Part shown: in pieces, positions 9,465 to 18,790 of the stretch
Layout of the letters: each line of letters begins with the position of its first letter
Position numbering within the stretch: the first letter of the stretch is position 1
NCBI GenBank assembly: GCA_037443265.1
Contig: JBBIOR010000001.1
Location: 85,265-116,489, forward strand
DNA from: Candidatus Fraserbacteria bacterium
Lineage (GTDB): Bacteria > Bipolaricaulota > Bipolaricaulia > RBG-16-55-9
Direction of reading: 5' to 3'
DNA: 31,225 nucleotides
Notes under the pieces: model-generated
Told to the model about the DNA's origin: nothing
Database searches by the model: none
Seen by the model: only the letters and a program-made list of their open reading frames with translations
Position numbers and translations under genes: made by a program

Positions 9465-10372
9465 CGTAGCTTCAGCGTTCGAGCGAAGAACTCCCGCACC
9501 TCTTCGACATCGGCTCGAATTTGAGCCCGAAGTTCTGAGAGCGTCTCGAAGCGCCGATCTTCCCGCAGGCGCGCGAGGACTTCGACCTCTAGCTCTTCTC
9601 CATAGAGCTCTAATTCTTTGGGATGGGGTTGAAGGATATGGACCTCGACGGAGACCTCTTGGCCGCCCAGCGTCGGACGGCGGCCGATGTAGAGCGCGCC
9701 CTCTCTCTTCATATCTCTAAAGCAGACCCGCGCCGCATAGATCCCCTCCGCTGGAAGAAGCACTTCCGGGTCAACGGCGAGATTGGCCGTTGGGAAACCC
9801 AGGGCCTGGCCCTGCCGCCAGCCTGGAATCACCCGACCCCAAATCCTTGGGCAATCTCCCAGAAGCTTTTTGGCTCGCTCGACGTTTCCCACCTGGAGGG
9901 CCTCACGGATGGCCGTGCTGCTTATGATTTCTCCTTCGACGGTGACGGGCTCTTGGATCTGGACTGCAAATCCCAGCTCCTCTCCCAATGCGGTGAGCGT
10001 GGCGACGTTGCCTGCTCGATCTCTGCCAAAACAGAAATTCTTCCCCACAACGACGGCCGCGGCTCTTAAATCCTCAAGCAGAATCCGAACGACAAACTCC
10101 CGCGGCTTAAGCTTCTGGAGCTTTGGAAAATCGAGGATGACGACCGTATCGACATACTTTCGCAAAGCTTCAATTCTCTTCGCTTTTGGCATCAAGAGCC
10201 GCTTGGGACGCCCAAGATAATTCTGAGGCGGCTTGGGAAACGTAAGCACTACGCTCTTTAGCCCAAGCGCATGGGCCAGCTGGCGCGTCCTTAAAAGGAG
10301 AGCCTGGTGGCCCAGGTGCACTCCGTCGAACGTCCCGATCGTCACTGCCGTACGGGCTTCAGACGTCCCCAT
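9461..10372 (-). CDS. ribF: Bifunctional riboflavin kinase/FAD synthetase
   Basis: TIGTFDGVHLGHQ; VVVGKNFCFG; ISSTAIR; LGFPTANL; IGRRPT; VEVHIL; LREDRRF. Confidence 0.95.
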   Translation of the reverse strand: MGTSEARTAVTIGTFDGVHLGHQALLLRTRQLAHALGLKSVVLTFPKPPQNYLGRPKRLLMPKAKRIEALRKYVDTVVILDFPKLQKLKPREFVVRILLEDLRAAAVVVGKNFCFGRDRAGNVATLTALGEELGFAVQIQEPVTVEGEIISSTAIREALQVGNVERAKKLLGDCPRIWGRVIPGWRQGQALGFPTANLAVDPEVLLPAEGIYAARVCFRDMKREGALYIGRRPTLGGQEVSVEVHILQPHPKELELYGEELEVEVLARLREDRRFETLSELRAQIRADVEEVREFFARTLKLR

Positions 10373-11333
10373 GCCTTTCGGCTTCCTCCAGAGCGCGTTG
10401 CACTTCGGCCAGCACGCAGGCCTCGACTTCCTCCAGGGTCCCTGGGATGAGGCAGCCGGCCGCCTCCTTATGGCCGCCCCCTCCGAAGACCCGTGCCACC
10501 CGGCTGACGTCCAGCCCGTCTTTGGCCCTAAGACTCACCTTGATCTTGCCTGTCCCCAGCTCCTTGAAGAGCACGGCCACGCGGACCCCCTCGACCGCCC
10601 GTAGCTCCTCGGCCAAGCGCTCTGTGTCATCTAGATCGGCCCCCATCTGGTGGAAGATCTCTTGAGGGATCGAGCTCCAGATCACGCCGTCTTCCACTTG
10701 AGCGCTCAGGAACACATGGCCCATGAGCTTCATCTCTTGGACGCTTCTGCGCTCATAGAGATGGACGACGATCTCACGAACCCGCGCCCCATAGCTTACG
10801 AGCTCTGCGGCCACCCGCAACACAAAAGAGTCCACGTTGGCATTTCTAAAGGAGTCCGTGTCCGCCACGATGCCCGCGTATAGAAGGGTCGCCAGATCCG
10901 GCGTGATTTTTACGCCCAACTGTTGGGCCAGCTCATAGAGGATCATCGTAGTAGAAGCCGTAGGTTTCACCCAGTTGATCTGCCCAAATCGAGGGTTGTC
11001 CCCATGATGATCGATGTTGACAATCAGCGGGTGATCTTTAAGGATCTGAAAGAGTCCTTCGCCCACGCGGCTCAGCTGCCCACAGTCGACCACAAACCAA
11101 GCCTCCACGCCCTGCGAGCCTTCTTGGAGGGCACGAATGGCCTCTGCGCCCGGAAGGAATCTCAAATTGCCGGGGACCGGGTCGCGCATCACGGCCCAGG
11201 TCTCTTTGCCCAGGGCCTCCAGCAGGTGTTTTACAGCCAAGACGCTGCCGATGGCATCGGCCTCGGGGCCGAGATGGGAGGTGATCCCAAAGTGCTTATG
11301 CTCTCGAATGATGGAGATAATCTGCTCGATCAT
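10359..11333 (-). CDS. nrnA: DHH/DHHA1 bifunctional oligoribonuclease / pAp phosphatase
   Basis: [48 protein letters not shown]. Start refined to ATG 11333. Confidence 0.9.
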
Positions 11334-11394
11334 CGCGTGGCTCAGTATACCCCACAAGTTGCTCGATGGCGAGCCGCTTGTTAGAATCTGGCCA

Positions 11395-12438
11395 ATGGCC
11401 CGCGAATCGATCACCCGAGGCGAAGAGCGCGAAGAGGATCGAGTTATTCAATCCCTGCGCCCCCGAAGACTTTCAGATTTCATCGGCCAAGAGCGCATCA
11501 AAGAGCAGCTTCGGCTCTACATGGAGGCCGCTGCCCGCCGCGGCGAAGGGCTCGATCACATCCTGCTCCATGGGCCTCCGGGCCTGGGCAAGACGAGTCT
11601 AGCCCTCATAGTGGCCGCGGAGCTAGGTGTGAATATAAGACTCACTTCCGGTCCCGTGATCGAGCGCCCCGGAGATCTGGCCGCGCTCATCACCAGCCTC
11701 TCCGAGGGCGATGTGCTCTTCATCGATGAGATCCATAGACTGAGGCGCAACGTCGAAGAGCTGCTCTACCCCGCCATGGAGGACTTCACATTAGATATTC
11801 TGATTGGAGAGGGCCCAAATGCCCAATCGCTTAGGATTGACGTGCCGCGCTTTACGCTCATCGGGGCCACGACTCGTACGGGGCTCTTGACTTCGCCTCT
11901 AAGAGATCGCTTCGAAGTCGTCTTCCATCTCGACTTCTACAGCGAGGAGGAATTGCAAGAGATCGTGCGCCGAGGAGCGGCCATTCTGAACGTGGAGATC
12001 ACAGAAGACGGGGCATGGGAGATTGCGCGTCGGGCGCGGGGCACGCCCAGAGTGGCCCATCGGCTGCTCAAGCGCGTGCGCGACTATGCCCAAGTCAGGG
12101 GCCAAGGCCGCATCGATCAAAGGGTCGCCCGCGAGGCTTTAAGAGTGCTCGGGGTGGACGAAGTGGGCCTAGATGAGCTGGATCGCACCATCTTGAGCAC
12201 GATCATCGAGAAATTCTCCGGCGGCCCTGTAGGATTAGAGACGCTCTCGGCGGCCCTTAGCGAGGAGAAGGACACGATCTCGGAAGTCTATGAGCCATTT
12301 CTGCTCAAGAAGGGCTTCCTGCAACGCACGCCGCAGGGGCGCATCGCTACCGAGCGAGCCTATCAGCATTTGGGATTCAAGCCCCCGGCTCAGACTCTGA
12401 AACTCTTGCCCGAAGACGCCGAGACCAAAGAAGGCTAG
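11395..12438 (+). CDS. ruvB: Holliday junction branch migration helicase RuvB
   Basis: [63 protein letters not shown]. Start refined to ATG 11395, downstream of TTGCTC-17-TAGAAT. Confidence 0.97.
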
Positions 12439-12656
12439 CCCAAAGAGCCGGCTAAGAATTCTTCCACCAGCGCTTGGGCTCGCTCGTAGTCTCCTTCCGG
12501 CACGCAGACCCACGGGCAAGCATCATACACAGGGATGCCGCCCACGATGGCCTGCAGATGCTCCCCTTCCACCGTGGCCGGAATGCCATTGTCCTCCAAA
12601 AAACCTTTGAGGAGATACGCTTCCGGCACGCTCTGGGCAATGTGAACCCGCTTCAT
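12435..12656 (-). CDS. DUF2007-like small protein (putative signal-transducing protein)
   Basis: [21 protein letters not shown]...[14 protein letters not shown] pattern. Confidence 0.75.
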
Positions 12657-12946
12657 CTCTTGCGCTGGCCTTTCGACTTCTTCGAGGAAGAGCCCTGCTC
12701 TTTGAGGAACTCTTCGACCTTCTTGGGATCGACGCCCTTAAGACGCTGGGCTAGCTTCTTCAACTCCGCGGGGGGCACTTCTTCATCCAGCCACTTCTCC
12801 AGCTCGTCGAGAGGCACGCGCCACTGGCTCCCAATCTTGACCCCCGGAAGCTCGCCGCTCTCGAGCATCTTCTGCACTTCTTCTAGGGGGATGCCCAGAT
12901 ACTGCGCGGCCGTCGCAGGCCTTAAGTAGCCGCCGATCCTTCTCAT
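12653..12946 (-). CDS. Excisionase-like helix-turn-helix DNA-binding protein (HTH_17)
   Basis: YLRPATAAQYLGI...MLESGELPGVKIGSQWRV. GAGGAGG SD; overlaps the next gene by 4 nt. Confidence 0.8.
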   Translation of the reverse strand: MRRIGGYLRPATAAQYLGIPLEEVQKMLESGELPGVKIGSQWRVPLDELEKWLDEEVPPAELKKLAQRLKGVDPKKVEEFLKEQGSSSKKSKGQRKR

Positions 12947-13548: not shown

Positions 13549-16500
13549 TCATCTCCCGAAGGAGAGCGTCTGGTCCGTGGGCGAGTAGCTCACTTCGGCC
13601 GTGGGGAAGGCATTGATGCGCGCCTGGAGAAAGAGCTGATTCTGATTGACAAAAAGCCCGATCTGCCAGCAGGCCTGACAGAATTTCTTGATGATCCCCA
13701 CAGTCAGGGCCCTAAAGCGCCCCAGCCCCAAATCATATTCGCCGCCGAAGTCGAGCTCCCAGTCGCCTAAGCTCCAGTTCGATTGTAGATTCACCCGGCG
13801 CAAGGCCAATTGATTGGGATCGAAGCGCAAGCCGGCGCGCAAGGGCCCTCCCAGATCGAGCTTGGCAATGAGATCGTCAAAGCGCGCCTGCGTAAAATCA
13901 TAGCCGCCGCTTAGAGCCAGCTGCCAGCCTCCGCTTGAGGTGCTCCCCTGCATATTTGCTTTCAACAAGCTCGGCCGGTTCAGGTCGAAGGTGAGCCCCA
14001 GCGAAGTCTGCGCCATGCCCAGACGATAGGCCGCGTTCAGGCTCAGAGGATCGAAGCTGCCACGCGCAAAGTCGTAGCCCGTGCTCAGTTGAAGGCTCCC
14101 CAGCTGGCTCAAGTTCCAAGACGATCGCAGCGTCGCTCGATGGGCTGTGGTGAGCTCATCAAAGCGGAAAGGACTCCGCCCGCGCACGGCGCGATAGAGA
14201 TACTCCAGCGCGAGACTCAAGCCGCTTTGGGGACTCCAGCCCGCCTGTGCTGTGACATCCCACGACTCGCGGCGCGTGAACTCATACAGCGAAAGGCGGT
14301 AGCCCGAGCCGGCGCGCAGTTGTATGCCCATAAAGGGCGTGAGTGGCTCAAGGTTCATCTGAATTCGTCCATCGAAGCGCGAACTCTCTCGCGAAGAGCC
14401 ATCGAGGGCTTCTTCATGGTAGCGCCCCCAATCGAATCCTGTAGAGTAGCGAAGGGGCAGTCCCCCTATAGCCAGGGGCTTTTGAGCGAGAGACAGCTCC
14501 GGCAGCCGCTCCAGCACCCGATAGCTCAATCTTTTTAGAACCTCGGGATCGGGCTCCGGCCCCAAAAGATTCTGCTCCCGGCTCAGGCCCACCTGCCAGC
14601 TCCACTCCCCTTCCTCGCCGGAGAGCAGGAGCTGGGAGAGGAGTCTGGTGGCCTCGCGGGCCAGAAGCCCCGTGCGCAACCCCGCCGAAAGATCTAGCTG
14701 AGTCTTCTCATTGAGCTTCAGGGCCTCGGACCAGTCGAGCGCCAGGGATTCCTCACGGCCCACCAAGCGATAGAACGAGAAGCGACCTCCCCGCGAGCCC
14801 GGCAGAGCACGATAGAAGAGATCGAGTCCGCTGCCGACTTCGCCGTAGCGCGTGTAGTAATCCAGCAGCAGATACCCGAAATTCTGCTCATCGAGAAAGA
14901 GCGGGATGCGCCACTTGGCGAACCAGCCACGCTGCCCGTCACGCCCCAGCTCGGGGATGAAGGGATATTTCTGCTGGACGTCCGTAAGGGGCGCCAAATA
15001 CGCCGGGGCCCAGAAGAGGGGCGAGCCGAAGGCCCTAAGCGTGAGGTTGAAGGCCACCAGCACCTCATCGGGTCGAATGAAGAGTCTTTGGGCGCGGATC
15101 GAGTATGCCGCTTCTGGGATGGGTGCCTCGCAGGGGCACGTCGTGAAGTCGCCGTCTTTGACATCCAAAAGACTCACTTGATTCTTCTCGTTGAAAGATA
15201 GATGGGCCTCTCGGCCCCGATAGCGCAAGCGATGCCTCTCGCCCCGGGAATTTATAAAATCTGTCTCCCCTTGGAAGTCTTCGACCAGGGCGTCTTGAGC
15301 CTGCCACCCCCCCGGGGAATCTTGCCTCAAGCGCAGTCGAAGAAAGCTCGCTTGGGTCGTCTGCTTCTGAGCTGTTTGCTCCAGAGTGACGTAGGAGCGG
15401 GCTTCTACGTCCCAAGCCCGCTCTTCTCTATTCTTGAGCGAAAGACTCTCTGCTGAAAGTCGTCCACCGGCAAATTTAATCGACGCCGATTGCTCCAGCG
15501 TGATCTCCTCCAGCGTGATCGTCTCATCTTGCTGGATGATCAAGATCGCTTCCAGAAGGATGGCGCTACCCGAGATCTCTCGATGGGAGAAGCGGGCGCT
15601 CCTCGCTTCAATCCGCCAGCGATCAGCCTCCCCCCGAAAGAGCGTAAGCTGCTGAGCTTCAATCGTGCCCTCGCGATAGTACGCTTGTACGTGCCCTTCG
15701 GCCGTGATCGTCTTCCACCCCTCCGAGAGGGTCAGTATGTCAGCAGAGAGTTCAATGGGTACAGGCTCGCTCGCCGGCTGGGCAACGCCCGTCAGGGCCG
15801 CTCCCAAAGGGGCAAGCGCCGCTAGGGCCAGAGGCAGAAGGCGCTTCACACGTTCGACGAGATCTAGACGCCCCAAGCAATTGGCCTGCCAAAGGAGCAC
15901 GAGCCCCATGAGCCCGAAGAGGAGATTGGGCAGATGTACACCCAAGGCGGGAGGGAGATCGCCGCGCTTGCCCATGATCTCCGCCGTCCAGAAGAAGACT
16001 CCTTGATAGAGGAGCACCAAGAGCACGCTGAGAATGACTCCCAGCGCCCGGCCACGCGGGCCGATCAAAAGACTCAAAGGAGCCCCAAAGAGCGCAAAGA
16101 TGAAACTGGCCAGAGGAATGGCAATCTTCGCATGGTAGTCGACGATTAAGCTCTCGGCTGGCCGCCCTATACGCCGAAAAGTCTCGATGCGCTCGGCCAG
16201 CTCTCTTAGGCTCATCTCGCTGGGGCTGCGCTGCTCGAAGATCAATGTCCGAATCGTCTCGCCGACGTTGAGGTCCATCGTCTCGAAGCGGCTCTTGTAG
16301 GTGAGATTGCCTTGATCGTCGAAGGTGTGGATTATGCCTCTTCTCAATTGCCAGATCTGGCCGTCCCAGACGGCGCTCTCTGCGGCGATCACCTTGGGGA
16401 AGGTCCCACCATCTGGAAGATTCACCTGGCCGCTTTTGTCATAGATGAGCACACCTTCCAAAACGTTCTCTTTTTCATTGTAGTGGCGCACGTAAAAGAA

Positions 16501-16977
16501 ACGATTCTCGTCATCTTTGAAGAAGGCATTGTCTTGGATATGGGGCGTCGAACGGCTTCCATAGATCTGTTCGACATAGAGCCTCAAATATTGTCGATTG
16601 CCCCAGGGGGCAAGATCATCTCCGATCCAGAAATCTATGCCGCTTAAGAAGAGCCCGACGAGGAGCAAGGGCACAAGAAGACGTCTCAAAGAGATCCCGC
16701 TGGCTTGCAGCGCGATGATCTCCCGGTCGTGGCCGAGCCTTCCCAAGGCTAGAAAGATCGCAAAGAGCGTAGCCACAGGGAACGCCAGCACCAGCAGATT
16801 GGGCAACTGATAAAAGAGCATGAGCATGAGCGTGCTGGGGGGAATGATACGGTCCACCAGCAATTGTGAGAAGCGTCCGATCAAGAAGAGCAAGAAGAAG
16901 ATAAGAAAGCCTAGAATCGCCAGCACAAAGGGGATCGTCATCTCTTTAAGCAAATAGCGATCGGCGATCTTGAGCAT
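13549..16977 (-). CDS. Fusion protein: LptF/LptG (YjgP/Q) permease + OstA/LptA-like beta-jellyroll + LptD-like beta-barrel
   Basis: N-terminal MLKIADRYLLKE, LGRLGHDREIIALQASGISL, KIAIPLASFIFALFGAPL (LptF/G). Then PIELSADIL...ITAEGHV (OstA-like), FTTCPC...YSIRAQRLFIRP...GSPLFWAP (LptD N-terminus), amphipathic beta strands and a C-terminal CQACW. Confidence 0.85.
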   Translation of the reverse strand: MLKIADRYLLKEMTIPFVLAILGFLIFFLLFLIGRFSQLLVDRIIPPSTLMLMLFYQLPNLLVLAFPVATLFAIFLALGRLGHDREIIALQASGISLRRLLVPLLLVGLFLSGIDFWIGDDLAPWGNRQYLRLYVEQIYGSRSTPHIQDNAFFKDDENRFFYVRHYNEKENVLEGVLIYDKSGQVNLPDGGTFPKVIAAESAVWDGQIWQLRRGIIHTFDDQGNLTYKSRFETMDLNVGETIRTLIFEQRSPSEMSLRELAERIETFRRIGRPAESLIVDYHAKIAIPLASFIFALFGAPLSLLIGPRGRALGVILSVLLVLLYQGVFFWTAEIMGKRGDLPPALGVHLPNLLFGLMGLVLLWQANCLGRLDLVERVKRLLPLALAALAPLGAALTGVAQPASEPVPIELSADILTLSEGWKTITAEGHVQAYYREGTIEAQQLTLFRGEADRWRIEARSARFSHREISGSAILLEAILIIQQDETITLEEITLEQSASIKFAGGRLSAESLSLKNREERAWDVEARSYVTLEQTAQKQTTQASFLRLRLRQDSPGGWQAQDALVEDFQGETDFINSRGERHRLRYRGREAHLSFNEKNQVSLLDVKDGDFTTCPCEAPIPEAAYSIRAQRLFIRPDEVLVAFNLTLRAFGSPLFWAPAYLAPLTDVQQKYPFIPELGRDGQRGWFAKWRIPLFLDEQNFGYLLLDYYTRYGEVGSGLDLFYRALPGSRGGRFSFYRLVGREESLALDWSEALKLNEKTQLDLSAGLRTGLLAREATRLLSQLLLSGEEGEWSWQVGLSREQNLLGPEPDPEVLKRLSYRVLERLPELSLAQKPLAIGGLPLRYSTGFDWGRYHEEALDGSSRESSRFDGRIQMNLEPLTPFMGIQLRAGSGYRLSLYEFTRRESWDVTAQAGWSPQSGLSLALEYLYRAVRGRSPFRFDELTTAHRATLRSSWNLSQLGSLQLSTGYDFARGSFDPLSLNAAYRLGMAQTSLGLTFDLNRPSLLKANMQGSTSSGGWQLALSGGYDFTQARFDDLIAKLDLGGPLRAGLRFDPNQLALRRVNLQSNWSLGDWELDFGGEYDLGLGRFRALTVGIIKKFCQACWQIGLFVNQNQLFLQARINAFPTAEVSYSPTDQTLSFGR

Positions 16978-17769: not shown

Positions 17770-18777
17770 TCAAGTGAGCAGAGCCTGAGCCGCCCGCTCG
17801 AGAGCCCCCACCCAGATGTCCAGCTCTTCCTCATGCAGCATCTTGAGAAGCACTTCCAGTTCCAGCCACGGATTGAAGACCCCTTCAATGGCACCTGTGG
17901 TGGGATGAAGCCACAGGATATCCGCGTAGTCGGGTTTGCGCTTGCGTTCCGCGGCACGGACCTTCCTATAGCGCGCTTCTCGATCCGCATCAGAGAAGAG
18001 CTGCTGGGACAACGCCCCCAAGAAGCGCTTTAGCCGCTCCTGATTTCTGACTCGTACTTCCTTCAAAGACCTTCTGGGATGCAGAAGATGGAGCAACTCC
18101 AGTTTCCGAAGCTGCGGCACATCCCAGGGATGCAGCAAGGCGAACCCTTGAGCCAGGCCTTCGGCCGCTTGGATGCGCCTCTTCCACCAGGCAGGCAGCT
18201 CGGGCCGCAGTTTCTCCTCCCAGGCCTGCACCTCCAGCCAGGCGACTCTTTCCGGCAGGCCATCTAACAGCGAGGTCGCCTTCTGGGGAGTGAGACCTAG
18301 CCGGACGACGACTTTTACTCCCAACGCGGCCAACGGCAGATGCGGCGTGACGCTATCTCCCTGTAACACGAGATCCGGGCGCAGGATGACCCGCTCCCAA
18401 GGCACAATCACGCAGAGAAGCGCCCAGTTCTCCATGCCTTGCTCCCACGTCACGCCGCTGCGGATGTAAAACTCCTTAAGGGCCCCCAGCGGGGAGAGCA
18501 AGAAGTTGCCCGCGATCCCAAAGCGGGGAGAGAAGAGTACGGATGGGAACCCTACGCGATAAGGGGCTCCCATCAGACCGCGATACGACCTCGTCCAGGG
18601 ACGCCCATCGAGGGAGACGAGTTTCCAGACGAGCCCGTAGCGACCGTCCAGCCGACAGGCGGGCCACTCTTCTTCCAGGCAGGCCGTGCACCAGTGGCTC
18701 TCATAGCGGGTCGAGGGAGCATCCGTGGACAGCAGGTGATGGGTGGGACCACCGCACCGCTCGCAGTTGCCCGGCAT
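17770..18777 (-). CDS. Hypothetical protein with N-terminal CxxC...CxxC putative Zn ribbon
   Basis: 335-aa ORF filling the gap; GAGGTG SD before ATG 18777; CERC...CTAC; upstream TTGCTG-17-TATGAT promoter. Confidence 0.65.
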   Translation of the reverse strand: MPGNCERCGGPTHHLLSTDAPSTRYESHWCTACLEEEWPACRLDGRYGLVWKLVSLDGRPWTRSYRGLMGAPYRVGFPSVLFSPRFGIAGNFLLSPLGALKEFYIRSGVTWEQGMENWALLCVIVPWERVILRPDLVLQGDSVTPHLPLAALGVKVVVRLGLTPQKATSLLDGLPERVAWLEVQAWEEKLRPELPAWWKRRIQAAEGLAQGFALLHPWDVPQLRKLELLHLLHPRRSLKEVRVRNQERLKRFLGALSQQLFSDADREARYRKVRAAERKRKPDYADILWLHPTTGAIEGVFNPWLELEVLLKMLHEEELDIWVGALERAAQALLT

Positions 18778-18790
18778 GGCACACCTCAAT

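Follow-up and report, generated by a model that had tools for sequence, protein, structure and literature searches.

The DNA examined here, a stretch of 31,225 nucleotides from a Candidatus Fraserbacteria bacterium of the Bipolaricaulota (hereafter the window), encodes on its reverse strand one long protein that brings together parts of the Lpt lipid-export machinery. The N-terminal part is a permease of the LptF/G family, and behind it, in the same open reading frame (ORF), follow a jellyroll and a large beta-barrel whose predicted fold is that of the outer-membrane protein LptD. Between the two parts lies a hydrophobic segment with the layout of a Sec-type signal peptide. The initial annotation had noticed this segment directly after the last permease helix, together with an in-frame GTG at 15849, and both the sequence and the coordinates proved correct, with all features lying inside 15770-15860 (Table 1). 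The fusion itself is already published for Thermotoga (Sexton 2023), and the window provides one more member. The Fraserbacteria and Bipolaricaulota groups have been described as toga-bearing sisters of the Thermotogae with an Omp-alpha/Omp-beta tether (10.1101/2021.05.31.446380; PMC10665443), and the single open frame, its three-part layout of LptF/G, jellyroll and LptD-type barrel, and its conservation in a toga-bearing lineage place the window protein in the same fusion family. The origin of the joint and its probable fate in the cell are the subjects of this analysis.

Table 1. Features of the fused gene in the window; residue numbers are those of the fusion protein
Feature	Position	Strand	Basis or remarks
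Whole fusion ORF	13549..16977	(-)	1142 codons and stop; predicted precursor 129 kDa; whole-genome search shows an identical open frame
LptF/G-family ATP-binding cassette (ABC) permease domain, residues 7-363	15889..16959	(-)	PF03739, PDB profile, Foldseek, secondary structure of the model
Short cytoplasmic loop after transmembrane helix 6 (TM6), residues 364-376, QANCLGRLDLVER	15850..15888	(-)	Basic overall; D372 invariant, R376 nearly invariant
Predicted internal Sec-type signal peptide, residues 377-399	15781..15849	(-)	n-region (R)VKR, h-region LLPLALAALAPLGAAL, c-region TGVA
In-frame GTG (V377)	15847..15849	(-)	Not conserved
Predicted signal peptidase I site A399/Q400	15778..15783	(-)	G at -3, A at -1, Q at +1; cleavage inferred
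Periplasmic beta-jellyroll (OstA/LptA/LptD_N type), residues about 406-612	15142..15762	(-)	Model strands 409-612, weak profile matches, Foldseek
Invariant Cys614 and Cys616 at the jellyroll-barrel hinge (FTTCPC)	15130..15138	(-)	31/31 sequences
Large LptD-type C-terminal beta-barrel, residues about 625-1142	13552..15105	(-)	All-beta, high pLDDT, Foldseek LptD, conserved C-terminal columns
Invariant Cys1100 and Cys1103 near the barrel C-terminus	13669..13680	(-)	31/31 sequences

Domains of the fused protein and its genomic partners

The permease domain matches PF03739 with 301.1 bits (cut-off 27.9, E 1.4e-89) over profile positions 1-352 of 353, and PDB profile matches to LptF/G reach E 3e-17. 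In an AlphaFold2 model of the full-length protein, computed with 31 homologues (mean predicted local distance difference test score, pLDDT, 83.6), this domain consists of three helices, a beta-jellyroll (strands 151-237) and three further helices. LptF and LptG proteins have six helices with the C-terminus in. The window protein has the six helices and the periplasmic beta-jellyroll between helices 3 and 4, and its genome encodes an LptB partner. Scores against the NCBIfam equivalogs TIGR04407 (173.9 bits, cut-off 230) and TIGR04408 (173.7 bits, cut-off 240) both fall below cut-off, so that the domain is a member of the family but neither clearly LptF nor clearly LptG.

The remaining ~770 residues, among them the 743 behind the predicted cleavage site, have no Pfam match at E <= 0.1, and the LptD models PF03968 and PF04453 do not recognise them; in the genome search a PF03968 match of 12.2 bits at the jellyroll stayed below threshold, and some relatives of the protein do carry PF03968. 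Profile matches of the jellyroll to LptA structures are weak (residues 405-520, E 0.03), as is the match of the family profile to the LptD structure 8h1r (residues 559-678, E 0.05). The fold is more telling. The model is all-beta without interruption from residue 409 to 1140, an N-terminal jellyroll joined to a very large C-terminal barrel as in LptD, and the 15 best Foldseek matches in the PDB are all LptD chains (E 1e-24 to 3e-19, probability 1.0), including 4q35_A (9.9e-25), 9kn3_A, 8h1s, 5iv9 and 7omm, with target-normalised template-modelling scores of 0.42-0.54. In these matches the jellyroll aligns to the LptD N-domain, while LptF/G chains (6mjp_G, 3.2e-15, and others) rank after the LptD chains. 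The barrel ends in a motif, ...YSPTDQxLSFG, that is conserved in a 31-sequence alignment. The Lpt fusion is real, with an LptD half recognisable mainly by its predicted fold, supplemented by the weak profile matches and the PF03968-bearing relatives. Four invariant cysteines (C614, C616, C1100 and C1103) stand where, we presume, the interdomain disulfides of an LptD would be expected; by analogy with LptD, C614/C616 probably pair with C1100/C1103.

The genome is a draft in 44 contigs, 88% complete. Only one LptF/G-family gene was found in it, which makes the permease presumably a homodimer; a 1:1 polyprotein would then give two LptD-like barrels per LptB2(F/G)2. LptB is recognised by TIGR04406 (317 bits, cut-off 240), and the start of its gene is overlapped by a separate LptC gene. 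The LptC homologue (L048:2211-2753 (-), G000:C7), just upstream of lptB, is a PF06835 protein of 180 residues that starts MSGSRSQRFRPLLLVLFGLAALFELASCG, resembling a lipoprotein signal with a lipobox (LASC) and unlike the uncleaved anchor of Escherichia coli LptC. An Omp85/BamA homologue is also present, as is a gene for signal peptidase I (TIGR02227, 123 bits). In the region L059:545-2064 (+) (G000:C17) the gene directly behind that for signal peptidase I encodes a 242-residue Omp-alpha-like protein, which combines a signal peptide (...SSPWTQA/DG; here and below the slash marks the predicted cleavage site) with an SLH domain and a coiled coil of ~100 residues and ends in a hydrophobic tail, a tether shorter than the ~50-nm span reported for Thermotoga maritima Omp-alpha (PMC10160955).

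LpxC was not found in this 88%-complete genome or in any of 26 genomes of the order (0/26), and the organism appears to lack lipopolysaccharide (LPS). LptE was not found above cut-off in the genome (best 15.8 bits, cut-off 23), nor was another OstA-domain gene or an LptA beyond the fused jellyroll. The canonical proteobacterial Lpt system (LptB2FGC-LptA-LptDE; PDB 4q35, 9kn3, 6mjp) has the same permease and jellyroll-plus-barrel folds, and the likeness extends to the LptB and LptC homologues of the window genome and to the cysteines at the hinge and the barrel end. In the canonical system, however, LptF, LptG and LptD are encoded by separate genes and the signal peptide of LptD is N-terminal, whereas in the window genome only one LptF/G gene, the fused one, was found.

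The joint and its conservation

Around the joint the fusion protein reads ...LWQANCLGRLDLVER-VKRLLPLALAALAPLGAALTGVA-QPASEPVPIELSADIL..., which can be divided as ...GRLDLVER-VKR-LLPLALAALAPLGAAL-TGVA/QPASEPVPIELSAD..., directly after the last permease helix. The segment has a basic n-region, a hydrophobic h-region with a core of 16 residues and a c-region with small residues at -3 and -1, all as in a signal peptide, but it is not N-terminal; it starts at residue 377, behind a six-helix domain. A399, the last residue before the predicted cut, is encoded by 15783-15781 and Q400 by 15780-15778. In the AlphaFold2 model TM6 is the helix 343-369, and the joint appears as a low-confidence helix (374-392, with pLDDT <50 over residues 370-405). 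The initial annotation suggested a seventh helix by which the C-terminal part is re-exported, and this agrees with the six-helix, C-terminus-in topology of LptF/G, the family to which the fold matches point.

The fused relatives used to follow the joint comprised 31 proteins of 1081-1200 residues, all with PF03739, and 44 genomic loci; after sequences containing X had been dropped, 63 aligned sequences spanning the joint gave 55 distinct junction strings. The n-region is kept basic, with R376 in 50/55, K or R at 378 in 55/55 and R379 in 48/55 of them, while the h-region drifts, its best-conserved column reaching no more than 40/55. Conservation returns at the predicted site, where the residue at -1 is Ala in 46 of the 55 junctions, that at -3 is G, A, V, T, C or S in 49 and that at +1 is Gln in 37; Pro occupies -4 in 22, and -2 is variable and often bulky (L10, W8, F8, Q6). 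The Ala399 column is nearly invariant in the separate 31-sequence alignment as well. Conservation of the cleavage motif among homologues, a check named by the initial annotation, was thereby borne out, and the layout recurs in all fused relatives examined, too often for a chance resemblance. Dimensions were taken from the 46 junctions in which -1 is Ala. Counted from the last K/R to -1 the median is 20 residues; the median length of the hydrophobic core is 13 (range 8-20), with 12 or fewer in 22/46. The linker to the first jellyroll strand measures 3-8 residues in 43/46. These dimensions and the -3/-1 rule are those of signal peptidase I substrates, and an anchor that stays in the membrane has no call for them.

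Other classes of export signal were considered and rejected. Lipoprotein signals, the substrates of signal peptidase II, have a lipobox Cys at +1, and no conserved Cys occurs near the site in the 55 junctions. Twin-arginine translocation (Tat) signals carry the motif S/T-R-R-x-F-L-K; the window protein shows K-R where the motif has R-R, and 12/55 junctions have K at position 378. An anchor of the LptC kind was likewise set aside, since a separate LptC gene adjoins lptB and the linker appears far shorter than an anchored jellyroll would need.

Origin and spread of the fusion

Indications of where the joint comes from are provided by relatives in which the two halves are separate. In four loci from Bacillota metagenome-assembled genomes (MAGs; L028, L029, L032 and L033), lptF/G stops directly after ...ADxLR and is followed by an lptD-like gene and then by lptC (PF06835 confirmed in L029; N-terminal likeness in L028, L032 and L033). 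The lptD-like gene starts 15-21 nt after the lptF/G stop or overlaps it. Its products begin with ordinary N-terminal signal peptides (...RVARA/ED, ...GTASA/EA, ...SLGWA/QA) and are collinear with the C-terminal part of the window protein, including the FTTC and INAFPT motifs (BLASTP 6e-12, 2e-9). The proteins are thus homologous and stand in the same order, and the signal peptide lies exactly at the position of the joint in the fusion; the differences are the stop with 15-21 nt or short overlap between the genes, and an N-terminal signal peptide that needs no preceding membrane domain. A further locus, L044, has the reversed order, lptD-like and then lptF/G.

Two side observations concern these loci. 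Directly upstream of the split lptF/G stands a small gene (L028:5233-5949, L029:5349-5969, L032:3977-4618, L033:5321-5965) for a protein of 207-239 residues that starts with a signal peptide and ends like an outer-membrane barrel (...NYKVEF, ...GLTWNF); the L029 copy has no Pfam match. The pair in L044 adjoins a 1249-residue protein whose N-terminus looks, by eye, like an SLH domain.

A HMMER scan with residues 400-1142 over 1.84 billion cluster representatives found 329 relatives, the best 148 of which (own cluster excluded) were classified. Nineteen of the best 148 are fused to LptF/G, and a signal-peptide-like joint was recognised by eye in 19/19. The other 129 stand alone; 97 of these are full-length, of which 72 satisfy a crude rule for an N-terminal signal peptide. 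A profile search added 44 further fused proteins of at least 1000 residues, with joints that are again signal-peptide-like by eye; those named by source belong to the Halanaerobiales or Bacillota, and the set includes a protein of Halothermothrix orenii (P0195, 1040 residues) with the joint ...FFPSPASA/GS. These Halanaerobiales proteins represent the same fusion with the same kind of joint, and their hosts are LPS-bearing diderm Firmicutes. The profile search with divergent fused forms gave no Thermotoga among the relatives named by source. A different fusion, in which LptF and LptG stand in tandem in one chain, was also seen (P0227-P0234; 759-797 residues, two PF03739-type domains).

A survey of the phylum found the protein in 116 of the 121 genomes sampled, in most of them as one open frame of 985-1200 residues. 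The loci that resemble the window most bear the labels Candidatus Fraserbacteria or Bipolaricaulota. LptF/G is unfused, with about 395-443 residues, in one family of the phylum (f8; G026, G040, G044, G066 and G070). On the evidence of these sequence comparisons, the gene arose naturally by fusion of two genes that were once neighbours, lptF/G and one of the lptD type. Split and stand-alone relatives have an N-terminal signal peptide in the corresponding position, and the joint is therefore the retained N-terminal signal peptide of the downstream gene, the LptD part's own, kept through the fusion in several deep lineages.

Fate of the joint

Cleavage is what one would expect at a retained signal peptide. 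The fused protein is probably a polyprotein that is cut after A399 into a 45-kDa permease of seven helices and an 84-kDa outer-membrane protein. The six permease helices would insert co-translationally, leaving the end of the chain in the cytoplasm, and the basic loop (RLDLVERVKR) would orient the next hydrophobic stretch N-in/C-out, which would re-open the Sec channel and thread the rest of the chain into the periplasm. Signal peptidase I would then cut after G397-V398-A399; the 45-kDa permease would keep the spent signal peptide as its seventh helix, and the freed 84-kDa LptD-like protein would start at Gln400, fold, probably with C614/C616-C1100/C1103 disulfides, and reach the outer membrane through insertion by the BamA homologue. 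A single message would in this way supply both ends of the lipid-export machine, at the inner and at the outer membrane, in equal numbers, and the 1:1 stoichiometry proposed by the initial annotation is plausible. Four lines of evidence favour cleavage by signal peptidase I, namely the conserved -3 and -1 positions next to a variable core, the homologous position of the joint and the N-terminal signal peptides of split and stand-alone relatives, a gene for signal peptidase I in the genome, and published peptide data from T. maritima.

Sexton 2023 (PNAS, PMC10160955) calls the T. maritima protein G4FGC1 (Tmari_1743) a 'fusion pABC permease', assigns LptF/G, LptA and LptD domains to it and reports it as toga-enriched and conserved across the Thermotogae. 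Like the window protein, it unites LptF/G, LptA-like and LptD-like domains in a single gene, and its lineage, a sister of the Bipolaricaulota and Fraserbacteria, is LPS-free and bears a toga; in its report it is likewise conserved in its phylum, and it was found in the outer (toga) fraction. The report treats it as a single fusion transporter and lists it among barrels with 'Sec-dependent signal sequences'; its main text contains neither 'cleav' nor 'signal peptide' (PMC10160955). The spectral counts in its Datasets S2 and S5 are 0 in the inner-membrane samples and 38 and 77 in two toga samples, and the peptide rows listed for it (41 rows, 27 distinct peptides) all come from toga samples and start at residues 411-1013, with none in the first 410 residues among the rows listed (PMC10160955). 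These toga-only, C-terminal-only peptides favour a cleaved product, a reading made here and not by Sexton 2023. The lateral periplasm of T. maritima is reported to be 70 +/- 10 nm wide (PMC10160955), a distance that a jellyroll of ~200 residues cannot bridge, which again favours a released C-terminal product.

Several observations weigh against cleavage or weaken the evidence for it. Cleavage of the window protein is itself a prediction. The -1 residue is not Ala in nine of the 55 junctions; five of these nine form a subgroup of short proteins (about 985-1015 residues) with an alignment gap and a less certain site (...ASA/APPPF, ...GVA/APPPF). Hydropathy does not separate the joint from TM6, the best 19-residue windows having medians of 1.79 and 1.87, respectively, with values below 1.6 in 15/53 joints and 12/53 TM6 segments. 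The peptide lists for G4FGC1 are incomplete: Dataset S4 lists 16 and 25 rows for it against stated unique-peptide counts of 25 and 37, and other proteins fall short too (e.g., 2 of 3, 3 of 5; PMC10160955). The permease half of G4FGC1 was not seen in the inner-membrane fractions either (PMC10160955), so that poor detectability of this half could explain the missing N-terminal peptides; the window protein would yield 14 tryptic peptides from its N part and 33 from its C part. Finally, the orthology of G4FGC1 and the position of its joint were inferred from the layout of the family.

The initial annotation had offered three outcomes for the joint, of which cleavage by signal peptidase I is the one favoured by the conserved motif and the homologous N-terminal signal peptides. 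Another, an uncut signal anchor, would leave the joint as a permanent seventh helix, with one polypeptide bridging the inner and outer membranes covalently, as has been pictured for the Thermotoga fusion. The hydropathy of the joint, within the range of TM6 of the same proteins, would suit such a role; 5 of the 46 junctions in which -1 is Ala have an unbroken hydrophobic run of up to 20 residues; LptC, too, is built as a jellyroll on an anchor; and the Thermotoga protein has been described as a single fusion permease (Sexton 2023, PMC10160955). A plain anchor, however, needs no conserved small-x-small site, no Pro at -4 and no Gln at +1, and the cores of 8-12 residues seen in 22 junctions are short for a stable span. 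With a linker of at most 8 residues in 43/46 junctions, one jellyroll of ~200 residues could not cross the T. maritima periplasm; moreover, the genome has a separate LptC, and only C-terminal peptides are listed from toga fractions separated from the inner membrane (PMC10160955). An anchor that is never cut is accordingly unlikely. Marginally less so is mixed or regulated processing, in which most molecules would be cut and a fraction left uncut, for example as an assembly intermediate near the permease or a quality-control state; it would be compatible with every sequence feature seen, including a joint whose hydrophobicity borders on that of a membrane helix, and the arguments from linker length and periplasm width hold for any functional uncut form. 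It is improbable, although somewhat less so than the two readings considered below, that some or all molecules are deliberately left uncut as covalent staples of seven helices and a barrel at local contact sites of the inner and outer membranes. Were this true, lipid would be handed over and new outer membrane made at these sites, and the small-x-small motif would be the switch for a timed release.

In the remaining outcome, an internal translation start, ribosomes would begin at the GTG at 15849 or at a codon close by and make the LptD-like part, signal peptide included, as a product of its own; a start at this in-frame GTG (V377), just before K378-R379, would indeed give a normal-looking preprotein. 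The GTG, however, is peculiar to the window: among 32 other distinct loci the aligned codon is of start type (TTG) in just 3 and of non-start type in 29 (CTG 15, CTC 4, GCN 5, ATC 2, ATA, TGG, CTA), and position 377 is L, A, I, V, S or W at the protein level. No motif resembling a Shine-Dalgarno (SD) sequence occurs in the 20 nt upstream in the window, and a 4-mer of it occurs in 2/32 other loci; the annotated ATG start of the fusion ORF has no well-spaced SD either, so that a missing SD says little by itself and the weight rests on the codons. An internal start thus found no support, and initiation at 15849 is very improbable. That a frameshift or an assembly error joined two genes in the MAG might be suspected of a draft genome in 44 contigs that is 88% complete. 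An artefact of this kind is scarcely credible, because the fusion is conserved: the frame is uninterrupted in the 116 genomes of the phylum survey, the fusion occurs in 31 protein clusters, and there are fused proteins named Halanaerobiales, one of them on a 2.58-Mb contig.

Cleavage of the joint by signal peptidase I, the reading preferred here, has parallels among known precursors. FbcH of Bradyrhizobium, the cytochrome b/c1 precursor, and viral glycoprotein precursors are polyproteins cut by signal peptidase at internal signal sequences. In polyproteins of the FbcH type a polytopic part is followed by an internal signal peptide, at which cleavage frees a second exported subunit of the same complex; the released Lpt part, in contrast, would be an outer-membrane barrel, so that the products would lie in different membranes. 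In the literature searched, cleavage at the retained signal peptide is neither stated nor tested, and nothing was found on the Acetothermia outer membrane and LptD or on an Acetothermia fusion of this kind; a 2026 review brings up the Thermotoga toga but, in the text available, leaves this protein unmentioned.

If the joint is cut, the gene encodes a polyprotein of a kind rare in bacteria, with its two products bound for different membranes, a simple fixed-ratio supply of the ends of a trans-envelope machine, and the Thermotoga 'fusion permease' would be two conventional proteins and not one bridging protein. This two-protein view matters for models of how lipid is supplied to a toga ~70 nm from the inner membrane. 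The fusion also locates the 'missing' LptD of atypical diderms, behind an LptF/G annotation. In the text available, surveys found LptD neither in Halanaerobiales and Negativicutes (PMC5007114) nor in atypical diderms at large (PMC8871954), and a single LptF/G homologue with no LptD/E was given for Halanaerobiales (Antunes 2016; PMC5007114).

The neighbours of the fused gene in the window, which encode a HemQ-like protein, a CDP-alcohol phosphatidyltransferase and RuvB, are unrelated to it, and synteny is uninformative. The flanking ORFs 17770-18789 (-), of 339 residues, and 12474-12929 (+), of 151 residues, match no Pfam family at E <= 0.001. In the RuvB ORF, 11137-12438 (+), of 433 residues, ~106 residues precede the RuvB_N domain, and the frame overlaps a DHH-family ORF on the opposite strand (10359-11414); the true start of RuvB probably lies farther downstream than the one listed.

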